Virus record (IMG/VR): IMGVR_UViG_2802429246_000002
DNA length: 47,096 nt
Direction: 5' to 3' (one strand)
Source: a virus
Taxonomy: Duplodnaviria; Heunggongvirae; Uroviricota; Caudoviricetes
Both the position numbers and the translations under genes were made by a program. Below are positions 6,692 to 36,559 of this stretch, piece by piece. Position 1 is the stretch's first letter; each line of letters starts with the position of its first letter. The notes under the pieces were generated by a model. It was not told where the DNA came from. It did not search any database and saw nothing but the letters and a program-made list of their open reading frames with translations.

Positions 6692-6708
6692 ATTACCTTT
6701 CAGGTAAT
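6692..6708. promoter_or_regulatory. 17-bp inverted repeat attacct-ttc-aggtaat (operator-like site A)
   Basis: Exact 7-bp arms, reverse complements of each other; member of a family of at least 13 sites. Confidence 0.6.
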
Positions 6709-6744: not shown

Positions 6745-6764
6745 TACTGTATAAATATACAGTT
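6745..6764. promoter_or_regulatory. Putative LexA (SOS) box TACTGTATAAATATACAGTT
   Basis: CTGT-N8-ACAG with AT-rich spacer, near-consensus, about 20 bp upstream of the ATG at 6784 with GGAG RBS in between. Confidence 0.7.
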
Positions 6765-6783: not shown

Positions 6784-7041
6784 ATGCAGCAGTATCACTA
6801 TCCACTGGAAGACGGATTTACCGAAAGGATTCACACGCCGGGAGGCGTCAGATCACTGGTGGAGGGATCGCACTTGATGAAATTACTCCGGGATCTCGAT
6901 AAGGATGGATTTAATGTCGATGGCCCACTTGCCGAACTGACTGCACTGATTAACTACGTCACCAGCTCACAGATGTCTATGCAGGATCTGCAAACACATC
7001 TCGACTATTGTGCCGAACAATTACGAAAACAAACCCGGTAA
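6784..7041 (+). CDS. Small antirepressor-like protein (homolog of the C-terminal domain of the antirepressor at 8190..8885)
   Basis: 85 aa from MQQYHYPLEDGF; aligns with C-terminus of the 8190 ORF (Y..PL..G...IH.P.GV..L.E.S.LM.LL..L..DG..V.G..AELT); LexA box upstream. Confidence 0.6.
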   Translation: MQQYHYPLEDGFTERIHTPGGVRSLVEGSHLMKLLRDLDKDGFNVDGPLAELTALINYVTSSQMSMQDLQTHLDYCAEQLRKQTR

Positions 7042-7063: not shown

Positions 7064-7792
7064 CTATCGTTTCGCTTTGTGCTCGTCCCAGCACGTTTTG
7101 CACCATGCCATTAAGCCGTCCGCATTTTGATTATTAGGGTAAAAGCTGGTTCGTTTTCTGCGGACATTACAAATTGGGCACCACTTCATATGACGTGTAT
7201 TCTTTGGGCCATCGAGACACCTTGCACACCACTTAGTCAATCCATCTGGATTTTTTGACGATTTCCTGAATTTTTCATATGGAAGGTTTATTCTGCATCG
7301 CAAGCACTGCTTGCTACCGCTTGAAACTCTGTTAGCTGATTCTTCTTTTGGCGGCGATACAGAAGATATTCTTGCTGGCTCTGATACTGCCTGAGGTGCT
7401 TTTTTAAATGACTGAGACGATATGTCATCACCAGGGAATCTTCCATGATATGCCGGACGCGTTGACACTCCAGGTGGAAGCTCAGCTGTAAACGGCTTTG
7501 GCTGAATCAGTTGCCTCTCTTTTGCTAACTCCTGCTGTTTATAATATGTCTGGATTACCGCACTATCATAAGCAGGAGGTGCGGAAATATTAGGCGCATT
7601 ACCTCCAGTTTTTTGAAACTGAGTAGAGGTGTGTTCTATCACCTGTGTACGATTAATCGTTATCTCCCCATCTTCGGTCTTTATCGTTTTGTTATGATTA
7701 ACGACCGTACGATCAGAGATCTTAGTCTTGTTCTGGTTGATAACGTAAATAATCACCGTAACCACACCAACAACTATCCAGAAAACTTCCAT
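7064..7792 (-). CDS. Membrane-anchored protein with Pro-rich linker and tandem C-terminal zinc-ribbon repeats
   Basis: N-terminal TM helix; two repeats of C-x2-C-x(13-17)-DGL-x2-WC-x2-C; GAGGAA RBS; operator-like site 20 bp upstream. Confidence 0.6.
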   Translation of the reverse strand: MEVFWIVVGVVTVIIYVINQNKTKISDRTVVNHNKTIKTEDGEITINRTQVIEHTSTQFQKTGGNAPNISAPPAYDSAVIQTYYKQQELAKERQLIQPKPFTAELPPGVSTRPAYHGRFPGDDISSQSFKKAPQAVSEPARISSVSPPKEESANRVSSGSKQCLRCRINLPYEKFRKSSKNPDGLTKWCARCLDGPKNTRHMKWCPICNVRRKRTSFYPNNQNADGLMAWCKTCWDEHKAKR

Positions 7793-7811
7793 TGCTTTTC
7801 CTCACAATAAC

Positions 7812-7828
7812 ATTACCTTAAAGGTAAT
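7812..7828. promoter_or_regulatory. 17-bp inverted repeat attacct-taa-aggtaat (site B)
   Basis: Exact arms; about 20 bp upstream of the minus-strand gene starting at 7792. Confidence 0.6.
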
Positions 7829-7904
7829 ATCTTGCTTTCAGGTGATCAAGCATTAAACGCAACCAACCAAATACGGTTGATTTTAATATTTATTCGCGTT
7901 TATC

Positions 7905-7921
7905 ATTACCTTTGCGGTAAA
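7905..7921. promoter_or_regulatory. 17-bp inverted repeat attacct-ttg-cggtaaa (site B2)
   Basis: Same motif family with one arm mismatch. Confidence 0.5.
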
Positions 7922-8189
7922 TTTACATCGCACTCCTCTTGTGCCATAGTAATCGGGCACTGGCAAAATCCAGTGCCGGGATTGGCGTCCCGGATTACTA
8001 AAAGGCGCATTCACCGCGCAAGCGGTTTTTTTATGCGTATAGCACGGCCACATTCGTATTATGGTGGGCTGTGTGGGGGCACCGAAAGGTGCGCCGGGTC
8101 CTTTTAGCCGGTTACGCCAACCCTGCACAGTTCACCACCAACCGATTGGCGTCGGTAGTGGTGATTAACCAGACTAAAAGGTAACCACT

Positions 8190-8885
8190 ATGACAGCTAC
8201 AAAAAGCACGTCCATTTTTTCTTTCGAATCCCAAGCCGATATACGGGTAATCGTCATTAATGGTGAGCCATGGTTTATCGCTTCAGATGTTTGTCGGGCT
8301 ATAGGCATAGCAAACCATCGAGATGCTGTTCGAAAACTTGATGATGATGAGAAGGGCGTCGCTTCAACCGACACCCCTGGCGGTGAGCAAGAATCGATCA
8401 TTATCTCCGAGTCAGGCCTCTACACACTGATCCTCCGCTGCCGCGATGCGGTGACACCAGGCACTATCCCCTACCGCTTTCGTAAATGGGTTACAGGTGA
8501 GGTTCTTCCTCAGATCCGCCGCACCGGAAGTTACATTAAAAACTCGCTCCCGCAGGAAGAACGCATAAAGATGGTTGCCGACCAGGTTGCCAACGCCACG
8601 GCGTCAGCAGTAATGCAGGCGATGAAGATAGAGAACAAAACCTACAGCGCCCCGCTGAAGCCAGGATACCGCAGTCTGATTCACTCGCCGTCTGGTGTTC
8701 TCGGCCTGACGGAGAACTCACTGCTGATGAATCTGCTGAACCAGTTACAGGAAGACGGGCATGATGTATCGGGCGCGGCGGCGGAGCTGACCACCATGTT
8801 CTGCTACATCGTCGGTGTGAGTAAATGCCTGCGTGATATCCAGACGCATGCGGAGTACATCAACGACAAGGCTGGGTTCTTCTGA
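8190..8885 (+). CDS. Antirepressor (Bro-N/KilA-type N-terminal domain + Ant C-terminal domain)
   Basis: N-terminal IRVIVINGEPWFIASDVCRAIG...ISESGLYTLILRCRD resembles Bro-N; C-terminal domain homologous to the 6784..7041 ORF. Confidence 0.7.
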   Translation: MTATKSTSIFSFESQADIRVIVINGEPWFIASDVCRAIGIANHRDAVRKLDDDEKGVASTDTPGGEQESIIISESGLYTLILRCRDAVTPGTIPYRFRKWVTGEVLPQIRRTGSYIKNSLPQEERIKMVADQVANATASAVMQAMKIENKTYSAPLKPGYRSLIHSPSGVLGLTENSLLMNLLNQLQEDGHDVSGAAAELTTMFCYIVGVSKCLRDIQTHAEYINDKAGFF

Positions 8886-8950
8886 CGGGCGGCGGCACAG
8901 GGATGTGCCTTTAAAATAATCATTGGCGATGTGATGTAGATTCGCGTAAT

Positions 8951-8967
8951 ATTACCTTAAAGGTAAA
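8951..8967. promoter_or_regulatory. 17-bp inverted repeat attacct-taa-aggtaaa (site C)
   Basis: Sits 26 bp upstream of the ATG at 8993 with strong GAGGAGGAG RBS in between. Confidence 0.55.
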
Positions 8968-8992
8968 CCATGTGTTTACATGAGGAGGAGAT

Positions 8993-9202
8993 ATGGGATT
9001 TTGGTTCGCTCGTACAAAAACGAGGGATAATGCACCCAGCCCTCAGGCAAAAAATGCAGAAGTTCCGGCGTCAGCGCAGGTTAACAAGCGTGGTGGAGTA
9101 TATATCTCATCACAGCAAATTTCTGAGCTTCCTGAGGTTAAGGAGATGCGTCGTCTCGCTGCTGCAATTGTTAAACAGGATCTTGCCACTGTAAGGAAGT
9201 AG
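8993..9202 (+). CDS. Small soluble protein (69 aa), first gene of a two-gene cargo operon
   Basis: Strong RBS GAGGAGGAG; stop overlaps start of the downstream membrane protein gene (TAGTG); no recognizable domain. Confidence 0.55.
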   Translation: MGFWFARTKTRDNAPSPQAKNAEVPASAQVNKRGGVYISSQQISELPEVKEMRRLAAAIVKQDLATVRK

Positions 9203-26646: not shown

Positions 26647-26663
26647 ATTACCTTTCAGGTAAC
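26647..26663. promoter_or_regulatory. 17-bp inverted repeat attacct-ttc-aggtaac (site D)
   Basis: Same motif family; upstream of the GC-rich structured region and tRNA. Confidence 0.5.
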
Positions 26664-26984: not shown

Positions 26985-27061
26985 GTGGCATTAGCTCAGC
27001 TGGACAGAGCAACCGCCTTCTAAGCGGTTGGTCGCAGGTTCGAATCCTGCATGCCACGCCA
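26985..27061 (+). tRNA. tRNA-Arg (anticodon UCU), phage-encoded
   Basis: Manual fold: acceptor GTGGCAT/ATGCCAC, D-stem GCTC/GAGC, anticodon stem ACCGC/GCGGT with loop CTTCTAA, T-stem GCAGG/CCTGC with loop TTCGAAT, discriminator G, encoded CCA; sequence differs from E. coli argU. Confidence 0.85.
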
Positions 27062-33552: not shown

Positions 33553-33669
33553 GATTTACCCCTGAGGTAATTAAAAACCACATAAGACACGAAATCAATA
33601 GAGTTTAGAATATTTTGTTACCAAACAGGTAATTATCAAGACGTAAAAAAATGCGCTATCGCGCTGGTA

Positions 33670-35589: not shown

Positions 35590-35820
35590 TCATGAGTAGA
35601 AGAAGTATGCCAGTTCTGCTTTTGAGCGCAGCCATTGTCTTGTTTTACAGGCTTTAAAAAGCCCATTCATCAATACCTTACCTGGCATTTTGCGCTTACC
35701 TGTTAAGTGAGTCTGGATATAGTGACTCGTCGTTCCGGCTTCCTGTGCGAAGGCTTCACGCTCATCCGGAGTAAGTGCAAGCCAGTGCTTTTTGAAATCG
35801 AAATGTCCGTTATCGCTCAT
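35590..35820 (-). CDS. Cro/YdaS-like HTH regulator
   Basis: 76 aa; putative HTH AFAQEAGTTSHYIQTHLTGKRKMP; divergent from repressor gene; first gene of replication-side operon. Confidence 0.6.
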   Translation of the reverse strand: MSDNGHFDFKKHWLALTPDEREAFAQEAGTTSHYIQTHLTGKRKMPGKVLMNGLFKACKTRQWLRSKAELAYFFYS

Positions 35821-35886
35821 AGCTATTGCCTGATATTTATTTCAGATAATAAATATTCACCCATAAGGTAACAAAAATCAAGGATA

Positions 35887-35974: not shown

Positions 35975-36559
35975 ATGAAAAGTATCCAGGACGTCCGCAG
36001 GCAAAATCTCAACGACTTGATCGACCGTGAATTCAATGGTGTTCAGACGCGGATGGCAGAAAAACTTGGAACTCAGGCAAATCTGGTAAACCGCTGGGCT
36101 CTTGGCAAGAAGGTTATCGGCGACCAGGTTGCGCGAAAAATTGAAGCTGCCGCCAATAAACCCCGTAACTGGCTTGATATCGATCGCTCGCTTTCTCAGG
36201 AAGGTTTTCAGCCTGTCGGCCCAAGCGACATTGGTCAGCTGGCGGCTCACAACCTGGAACGCTGGATGAGCGAAAGCCGCGACCTTTCAACACAGGGAAA
36301 ACTTCACCGCGCATCCGGCGTCGCCCAGGTAACAATCAGCCGCCTGTTAAACAATGAGGTCAGCGTTTCCATTTCCACCCTGGAGAATGTTGCATCCGCA
36401 TTCGGGCGTCACGGCTATGAATTACTGATTCACCCGCACGACCCTGCGACCATCAACTATGACCGCTCGCGCTACGCATTGTTACCCGAAACCGAGAAAG
36501 CAAAGATCGAAAGTTACATTGAATTTGTCATCAACCAGAACGAAAAAAATAAACAATAA
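35975..36559 (+). CDS. Prophage repressor (CI-like), two HTH-like regions, no obvious LexA/S24-type autocleavage domain
   Basis: 194 aa; N-terminal XRE-type HTH (VQTRMAEKLGTQANLVNRW) and second HTH-like segment (GVAQVTISRLLNNEVSVSISTLENVA); divergent to cro-like gene. Confidence 0.65.
   Translation: MKSIQDVRRQNLNDLIDREFNGVQTRMAEKLGTQANLVNRWALGKKVIGDQVARKIEAAANKPRNWLDIDRSLSQEGFQPVGPSDIGQLAAHNLERWMSESRDLSTQGKLHRASGVAQVTISRLLNNEVSVSISTLENVASAFGRHGYELLIHPHDPATINYDRSRYALLPETEKAKIESYIEFVINQNEKNKQ

Follow-up and report, generated by a model that had tools for sequence, protein, structure and literature searches.

Organization of the ant leader

The DNA analyzed here, called the window below, is the whole 47,096-nucleotide (nt) stretch of IMG/VR record IMGVR_UViG_2802429246_000002. 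The host phage is an epsilon15-like (Uetakevirus-type) Escherichia coli prophage integrated in the chromosome, and the element under study is the hairpin-rich stretch lying 5' of its antirepressor gene, ant. The Ant protein matched Bro-N in Pfam (2.3e-21) and PHROG 130, 'anti-repressor Ant' (3.7e-63), and was 100% identical to ORF4 of phage vB_EcoP_ZX5. When that ORF4 was overexpressed, the prophage titre fell from 10^9 to 10^6 and transcription of the repressor decreased (PMC9782041). An Rfam scan of the whole window returned three matches at the gathering level, namely, isrK, C4 and one tRNA elsewhere. The isrK and C4 matches were adjacent in the ant leader, lay on the plus strand only and were full length against both covariance models, by which measure the module was judged to be intact. 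These results indicated that the stretch is very probably an IsrK-C4 RNA immunity module, of the P1 immI type, that silences the Bro-N ant gene in the lysogen. The unit begins with the operator and promoter (7906/7922), ends at the ant start codon (8190) and contains the following features.

7906..7920, no strand: operator-like palindrome TTACCTTTGCGGTAA ('site B2' of an earlier note on this DNA), directly abutting the -35 hexamer of the leader promoter
7922..7950, plus strand: sigma-70 promoter of the leader (promoter scan; -35 and -10 kept in homologues)
7922-7927, plus strand: -35 hexamer TTTACA, followed by a 17-nt spacer
7945-7950, plus strand: TG-extended -10 hexamer CATAGT (promoter scan)
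about 7957, plus strand: predicted transcription start
7957..8032, plus strand: IsrK-like small RNA of ~76 nt (RF01394 isrK, 77.9 bits, gathering 50, model 1-77 of 77)
7957-7976, plus strand: IsrK hairpin 1, GCACUGG/CCAGUGC at 7957-7963/7970-7976, loop CAAAAUC
7977-7992, plus strand: IsrK hairpin 2, CGGGA/UCCCG at 7977-7981/7988-7992, displaying a1
7982..7988, plus strand: target box a1, UUGGCGU, in the hairpin 2 loop; exact 7-nt complement of 8114-8120
7998..8005, plus strand: target box b1, CUAAAAGG; exact 8-nt complement of 8100-8107
8013..8032, plus strand: intrinsic terminator, ACCGC-GCAA-GCGGU followed by T7 (terminator scan; the 3' hairpin of the isrK model; covaries)
8057..8142, plus strand: C4 antisense RNA (RF01695, 77.7 bits, gathering 45, model 1-87 of 87, E = 1.3e-13)
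8063-8139, plus strand: mature C4, predicted 77 nt, by alignment to the annotated 77-nt C4 of P1
8062-8078 with 8121-8137, plus strand: C4 outer stem of 17 bp (minimum free energy [MFE] fold)
8079-8092, plus strand: C4 hairpin 1, GCACC-GAAA-GGUGC, with a GNRA (GAAA) loop
8093-8112, plus strand: C4 hairpin 2, whose loop holds b'
8100..8107, plus strand: b', CCUUUUAG, in the loop of C4 hairpin 2; antisense to b1 and b2
8114..8120, plus strand: a', ACGCCAA, single stranded, flanked by hairpin 2 and the 3' strand of the outer stem; antisense to a1 and a2
8137-8140, plus strand: 3' ACCA tail of C4 (sequence)
8146..8152, plus strand: target box a2, UUGGCGU, just 3' of C4; exact complement of a'
8174..8181, plus strand: target box b2, CUAAAAGG; exact complement of b', overlapping the ant Shine-Dalgarno (SD) sequence AAGG, with the ATG 8 nt past the box
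8190..8885, plus strand: ant, encoding a 231-amino-acid (aa) antirepressor in which an N-terminal Bro-N domain precedes a C-terminal domain

In an alignment of 36 homologous leaders, a -35 sequence TTGAC and a -10 sequence TATAnT were conserved at the same place as in the window. The first base of the isrK match of Gifsy-1 lies 7 nt past the -10, and the spacing in the window is identical. LexA control of the leader promoter was considered and rejected, there being no good box in 7800-8200; the sole match in that interval was mismatched and lay inside C4.

The leader region was 97 to 99% identical to those of phages TL-2011b, phiV10 and vB_EcoP_ZX5. At the leader, the records of these phages carry annotations of a terminator or of hypothetical proteins and no RNAs, and in the TL-2011b record a misc_feature, 'similar to hypothetical protein', spans the region. 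A megablast match to 7800-8200 was detected in 956 of 5426 complete E. coli genomes, and the module is therefore common in E. coli prophages, including Shiga toxin (Stx) phages.

Two structured RNAs in the leader

Every defining feature of the two families, C4 and isrK, that can be examined in sequence was found in the window. For isrK, sequence prediction placed a promoter and a terminator of its own at the ends of the ~76-nt RNA, with read-through into the antirepressor operon, and the layout of the RNA consisted of hairpin 1, hairpin 2 presenting a1, a single-stranded b1 and the intrinsic terminator. The isrK score of the Gifsy-1 copy itself was 79.3 bits. The terminator at 8013-8032 is predicted to end the IsrK-like RNA, and read-through would give a C4-ant transcript. 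The MFE of 7957-8032 was -28.0 kcal/mol (z = -2.4 versus shuffles).

For the C4 part (8057-8142), the MFE was -45.6 kcal/mol (z = -4.7), none of 200 shuffles was as stable, and the predicted structure reproduced the fold of the C4 family, a long outer stem enclosing two hairpins. The reverse strand of this part folded no better than shuffles (z = -1.2). The acceptor-like stem, the 3' ACCA and the alignment with P1 are sequence features consistent with processing of C4 from the leader to a 77-nt RNA, and C4 is listed among RNase P substrates in a review (PMC11143913). A tRNA or transfer-messenger RNA identity for the leader RNA was rejected, as ARAGORN reported solely a tRNA-Arg, at 26985, in the window.

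The complementarities between a'/b' and the target boxes were exact and in antiparallel order. Folding of the longer segment 7957-8215 gave an MFE of -105.5 kcal/mol (z = -5.4 versus shuffles), and two conformations were detected for 7957-8142, one of -82.9 kcal/mol in which a1/b1 pair with a'/b' and one of -81.3 kcal/mol with the IsrK hairpins and the C4 fold. A further helix was observed around the IsrK terminator, formed by 6 bp (GCGCAU/AUGCGU) between 8005-8010 and 8033-8038, which can form solely in read-through RNA. Compensatory changes in this helix (GCGACA/UGUCGU, GCGAUA/UAUCGU and GCACAU/AUGUGU) were present in most of the 32 homologous leaders that were folded, and the P1 sequence has the same terminator-enclosing arrangement.

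Several of these elements had been pointed out in the earlier note, which was made from the sequence alone. Its description of a GC-rich leader was borne out (52 to 53% in 7900-8199 versus 37 to 41% in the intergenic DNA just upstream), and both the GNRA stem-loop gcacc-gaaa-ggtgc (8079-8092) and the short GC stem with T7 at 8013..8032 are present, the latter having been found by the terminator scan. The stem-loop that it gave as cgggcactgg and its partner strand exists as a hairpin at 7957-7976, but with one mismatch in the 10-bp version, the outer bases of which are part of hairpin 2. Likewise, the extent of 7930-8170 marked the correct region but the real unit is somewhat larger (7906/7922 to 8190). 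The suggestion that a small RNA or attenuator acts over the antirepressor agreed with the detection of two Rfam families above gathering, with covariation and with an antisense segment complementary to the ant ribosome binding site (RBS). An Rfam scan and a folding and covariation analysis had been named as checks; the former gave 77.9 bits for isrK and 77.7 bits for C4, and in the latter z values reached -5.4 and both RNA structures covaried in homologues.

Conservation of the RNA structures and of antisense pairing

Homologous leaders were collected by a pattern scan of viral contigs, which yielded 120 loci, and 42 distinct C4 variants were kept after filtering. Approximately 40% of the pattern matches were chance matches and were removed by requiring a 5' AUGG motif. 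The search pattern fixed C4 hairpin 2, and P1-like variants with another hairpin-2 stem were left out of the sample; because of this fixed pattern, hairpin 2 (helix 3) gives no covariation information. The C4 alignment comprised 38 sequences, P1 and APSE-7 among them; 98.3% of its cells were paired, and 14 pairs had changed on both sides. Slid alignments, used as controls, were 33 to 54% paired, and none of 500 shuffles reached the observed covariation score. For the IsrK part, 90.4% of cells were paired in 36 homologues, compared to 33 to 46% in slid controls, with changes on both sides in 12 of 17 pairs.

Pairing between the antisense segments and their targets, the more informative test, was compared for cognate and noncognate combinations across the 42 variants. 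The average match length was 8.4 nt for cognate b'/b2 versus 4.0 nt for noncognate combinations, 7.1 nt versus 4.4 nt for b'/b1 and 7.0 nt versus 4.1 nt for a'/a2. The b' loops comprised 30 distinct sequences, each matching its own b2, and the 11 distinct a' segments were all matched by a1 and a2. Natural swaps were present in two close relatives that kept the b' of the window: one (L010) had a' GUUCCAA with a1 and a2 both UUGGAAC, and the other (L097) had a' GUGCAAA with a1 and a2 both UUUGCAC. These swaps indicated that selection preserves the ability of C4 to pair with the box sets on either side of it. Placement of b2 relative to the SD sequence was judged on the 37 homologues with a placeable downstream gene; in most of them, b2 ended in the SD sequence and the start codon followed 7 to 11 nt later.

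The genes downstream at other loci encoded Icd-like, ORF6N plus P22_AR_C, Rha, P22_AR_N and other Bro-N proteins. As varied antirepressor-class genes stand behind the same leader, the module is a portable controller of such genes. Separately, two leaders (L046 and L060) were observed to precede DUF6124 proteins, which have no recognizable antirepressor identity, and four (L020, L040, L031 and L008) to precede proteins of 58 to 92 aa without a Pfam match. These DUF6124 and short family-less proteins are candidates for new cargo of the module.

Proposed control of ant and alternative explanations

By analogy with homologous systems, most transcripts would end at the 8013-8032 terminator and yield the IsrK-like RNA of ~76 nt. 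Read-through transcripts would be processed, with RNase P acting at the 5' end as in P1, to the 77-nt C4 (8063-8139). The a'/b' segments of C4 would pair with a2/b2 on the ant mRNA and block ribosome binding, so that no Ant would be made and the prophage repressor would stay active. The a1/b1 boxes would compete for C4, both in cis, within a read-through leader whose fold has almost the same energy as the IsrK and C4 fold, and in trans, as the short IsrK-like RNA. A higher ratio of short RNA to C4 would, through this competition, release ant translation, as in Gifsy-1, and the released Ant would then inactivate the repressor. A tentative extension, which we would not call probable, is that the IsrK-like RNA is a dedicated C4 sponge, with the ratio set by terminator read-through and gating Ant, and that the neighboring 85-aa paralogue of the Ant C-terminal domain (6784..7041), behind its perfect LexA box, provides SOS induction as a second input. 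If this is true, the leader would be a self-contained ratio sensor, both RNAs coming from one promoter, and two independent induction inputs, SOS and RNA-gated non-SOS, would converge on one repressor.

A number of points weigh against the assignment of this role to the IsrK-C4 module. The functional steps are all drawn from homologous systems, and repressor binding at 7906-7920 is something that we infer from the palindrome sequence. The precedents disagree on the main output, which is a translation block in P1, reportedly premature termination in P4 and N15 and activation by the short RNA in Gifsy-1, and constitutive expression of the C4 equivalent of Gifsy-1 did not relieve toxicity (PMC4825925). 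No icd-like open reading frame (ORF) is present at the locus, and hence the P1 coupling of icd translation to ant transcription cannot apply as such. In a permissive scan, RF03163 c4-a1b1 ('a1, b1 targets of C4') scored 45.1 bits at 7944-7996, against a gathering threshold of 46.7; the Gifsy-1 and N15 copies scored 48.1 and 42.4 bits, respectively. Finally, for the duplex energies of the short boxes, calculated from the window sequence alone, a fraction of 0.03 to 0.31 of shuffled targets was as good. As these shuffles were weak, reliance was placed on the comparison of cognate and noncognate pairs across homologues.

One alternative places the control of ant in transcription attenuation rather than in an RBS block. 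As in P4 and N15, a processed C4-like RNA would pair with a1/b1 (the seqA equivalent) on the nascent leader and enforce termination at 8013-8032. The position of a1/b1 directly 5' of a conserved intrinsic terminator, with b1 adjoining the helix that flanks it, is consistent with such an arrangement. N15, whose antirepressor is reportedly under the control of a small processed RNA, carries the same two RNAs, isrK and C4, with the 3' end of isrK falling at the annotated N15 terminator. Barquist et al. equated IsrK with P4 seqA and C4 with the P4 CI RNA (PMC3632133), and the same idea was raised by the Gifsy-1 authors (PMC4825925). However, termination would leave the overlap of b2 with the SD sequence in most of the 37 homologues unexplained, the P1 record marks a2/b2 as sites of translational repression and the IsrK-driven toxicity of Gifsy-1 was not lowered by coexpression of the C4 equivalent (PMC4825925). 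Termination control of this kind is possible but doubtful, and it can coexist with the blocking of ant translation by C4.

A second alternative concerns the ORF at 8061..8168 (35 codons), a counterpart of Gifsy-1 orf45, the translation of which would open the ant RBS. The window ORF begins at the conserved AUGG of the C4 5' end. In Gifsy-1, this AUGG is also the start of orf45, whose stop codon overlaps the ATG of anrP, and both stop and start mutations in orf45 lower anrP activation (PMC4825925). The window ORF stops 6 nt short of b2 and 21 nt short of the ant ATG. Among the variants, however, the ORF ranged from 14 to >100 codons or had no matching AUG, and the position of its stop varied from 74 nt before the start codon of the downstream gene to 64 nt beyond that codon; the P1 ORF has only 14 codons. 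Furthermore, ORF 8061..8168 had no Pfam match, and substitutions tracked RNA base pairing, not codons. We regard leader-peptide coupling as an unlikely explanation at this locus, and the sequences make it unlikely that the translational-coupling step of Gifsy-1 is general across variants. In 16 Stx-phage-like variants (L005, L008, L009, L027 and others), the AUGG-start ORF had no stop within 300 nt; this open frame may be inherited by descent rather than meaningful.

The remaining explanations received very little support. The earlier note had pointed to P22, and a sar-type cis-antisense RNA, on the minus strand across the ant start, would have its sole basis in the analogy with P22 immI, where an antirepressor is under a small RNA; it is most improbable, because no minus-strand promoter-like site was detected in 7600-9100 by the promoter scan, the minus strand of the C4 region folded like shuffles (z = -1.2), both Rfam matches were on the plus strand and no other relevant family was found in 7700-8300 even among weak matches. 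The type is instead that of P1, P7, N15 and Gifsy-1, with C4 encoded on the same strand as ant and inside its leader. It is hardly credible that the region is an inert remnant or codes for protein, either in ORF 7832..8107 or, on the minus strand, in 7883..8128. In favor of coding, these frames are formally open and the TL-2011b misc_feature reads 'similar to hypothetical protein'; against these readings, no family match was obtained even at E <= 1, ORF 7832..8107 runs across the conserved promoter and terminator, the substitutions are compensatory for RNA helices and intermolecular boxes and the module is intact and full length against both covariance models. The doubt already cast on ORF 7832..8107 by the earlier note was therefore justified, with no Pfam match at E <= 1 and a course across the promoter and the intrinsic terminator. 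A Pfam search of ORFs 7832..8107, 7883..8128 (minus strand), 8061..8168 and 8071..8184 gave no match, and for the overlapping ORFs 7832..8107, 7883..8128 (minus strand) and 8071..8184 there was none even at E <= 1.

Dispersed palindromes and neighboring genes

The palindrome TTACC-N5-GGTAA, one copy of which abuts the leader promoter, was present in 17 copies in the window, compared to 0.8 expected. Copies of 15 bp each were located at 6693, 7813, 7906, 8952, 26648, 27265, 29984 and 30002 and, further along, at 33556, 33618, 35520, 35857, 35905, 36617, 36679 and 41761, dispersed in front of many genes. Those at 35857 and 35905 sit between a cro-like gene (35590..35820, minus strand) and a cI-like helix-turn-helix gene (35975..36559, plus strand). 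Judged from its sequence and distribution, the palindrome is probably the operator of the prophage repressor, and the copies together resemble a repressor-operator network like that of P1 C1, dispersed over an epsilon15-like prophage.

Upstream of the leader, a perfect LexA box (CTGTATAAATATACAG, 6747-6762) and one palindrome precede an ORF of 85 aa (6784-7041). Over residues 150-223 of the Bro-N Ant, its product was 42% identical to that protein (E = 8e-16), and the two have PHROGs 450 and 15539 in common. This ORF appears to be a free-standing copy of the C-terminal domain of Ant under SOS control, located beside the RNA-controlled Ant; it may be a small antirepressor of the SPC32H type. The divergent neighbor (7064-7792, minus strand) encodes a protein of 242 aa (PHROG 6762) with a hydrophobic N terminus and C-terminal Cys-rich repeats that weakly resemble endonuclease VII/HNH zinc fingers, and one palindrome lies 21 nt upstream of its start codon. 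The tRNA-Arg gene (anticodon TCT; 26985-27061, plus strand) lies inside the prophage and is flanked by the palindromes at 26648 and 27265.

Comparison with known systems

In the P1 record, the order of elements is the C1 operator Oc4, promoters P2c4/P1c4, a1, b1, c4 (77 nt), a2, b2, icd and ant, and the same series was found in the window, where the palindrome abutting the leader -35 parallels the position of Oc4 before c4. The record annotates a2/b2 as 'repression of icd ant translation'. The 77-nt predicted mature RNA, the three-helix fold, the location of b' in the hairpin-2 loop with a' 3' of it and an antirepressor as the regulated product are shared with P1 and P7. In P1, as here, a2 lies a few bases past C4, at the same position relative to it, and b2 lies at the RBS. 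There are differences: the window has no icd gene, b2 covering the SD sequence of ant itself; the operator is the palindrome TTACC-N5-GGTAA, whereas the P1 C1 site is asymmetric; and the phage is an epsilon15-like podovirus in the chromosome, whereas P1 is a plasmid prophage. The Bro-N Ant of the window had no BLASTP match to P1 Ant1/2 at E 1e-5. We consider the differences from P1 (no icd, a Bro-N antirepressor and a palindromic operator) to be minor. In P1 and P7, C4 blocks ant translation by pairing with a2/b2 (Citron and Schuster 1990, as summarized in PMC8198154 and PMC12197685).

At the isrK-orf45-anrP locus of Gifsy-1, the two Rfam families likewise precede an antirepressor in this order, with the same promoter-to-+1 spacing, the same a1 (UUGGCGU) and a' (ACGCCAA) and a short RNA that ends at the same terminator. 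Two transcripts arise from the Gifsy-1 promoter, the short IsrK, which is terminated, and an mRNA made by read-through (Hershko-Shalev et al. 2016, PMC4825925). Pairing of the middle of IsrK with the downstream RNA keeps this mRNA translationally silent, and IsrK supplied in trans raises anrP translation >100-fold; the pairing between IsrK and the downstream RNA was proved with the compensatory mutants G28/C162 and G31/C159 (PMC4825925). The mutated bases are a1:a' pairs, and the same a1:a' partners pair in the alternative fold of the window, which parallels Gifsy-1 also in its pair of near-isoenergetic leader conformations (structures A and B, PMC4825925). The orf45/STnc1160 segment was itself detected as a C4-family RNA (69 bits); the Gifsy-1 paper compares this downstream RNA with P4 CI, not with P1 C4 (PMC4825925). 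The two loci differ in the leader ORF, which in Gifsy-1 has 45 codons and a stop overlapping the anrP ATG and in the window has 35 codons and a stop 21 nt upstream, and in the b'/b1/b2 boxes, which are CGGUGAU/AUCACCG in Gifsy-1. In addition, AnrP looks like an ORF6N plus P22_AR_C protein rather than a Bro-N protein, as it has the same starting residues (MTTQISVETLSP) as an ORF6N plus P22_AR_C protein from the scan. In the text of Tree et al. 2014, on Hfq-bound prophage small RNAs of enterohemorrhagic E. coli, isrK and C4 are not mentioned.

Upstream of the ant operon of N15, isrK (62.4 bits) and C4 (78.8 bits) were likewise found; the anti-immunity locus of this phage is known for a small processed RNA, CA, that controls the antirepressor genes, and its counterpart in P4 is the CI RNA with seqA/seqC. 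In N15 and P4, the output is reportedly premature transcription termination (Ravin 1999; Briani 2001). P4 differs in that replication genes, not an antirepressor, are regulated. An 'IsrK-C4 immunity system' common to P4, P1, P7, N15 and some lambdoid prophages was described by Barquist et al. (2013, PMC3632133). In the APSE phages of Hamiltonella, isrK and C4 lie directly 5' of a Bro-N gene; they are annotated in GenBank records (including APSE-7) and discussed in PMC7313666. The APSE boxes covary, CCUGUUUAG with CUAAACAGG and AUGCGAA with UUCGCAU, and the differences lie in the box sequences, in the host and in the labeling of a' and b', which the authors give in the opposite order.

P22 immI shares with the scheme proposed here the silencing of an antirepressor in the lysogen, in part through a small RNA pairing with the ant translation-initiation region. 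The P22 RNA, sar, is cis-antisense and comes from the strand opposite to ant, and two proteins, Arc and Mnt, take part in P22 as well. No such sar arrangement was found in the promoter scan of the minus strand of 7600-9100 or in the Rfam scan of the window.

The module in the window is a copy of a system already described that had previously gone without annotation, since the IsrK-C4 pair has been published (PMC3632133) and is annotated in the APSE records. The correct annotation consists of two noncoding RNA genes (IsrK-like and C4) and their target boxes instead of a hypothetical ORF, and the known workings of such systems are left unchanged by this finding. The module provides a testable handle on non-SOS induction control and on immunity specificity in epsilon15-like phages. 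By analogy with P1/P7 heteroimmunity, the a' and b' sequences would set specificity, related phages having different a'/b' and target sets, and these boxes predict which related phages are heteroimmune at this locus.

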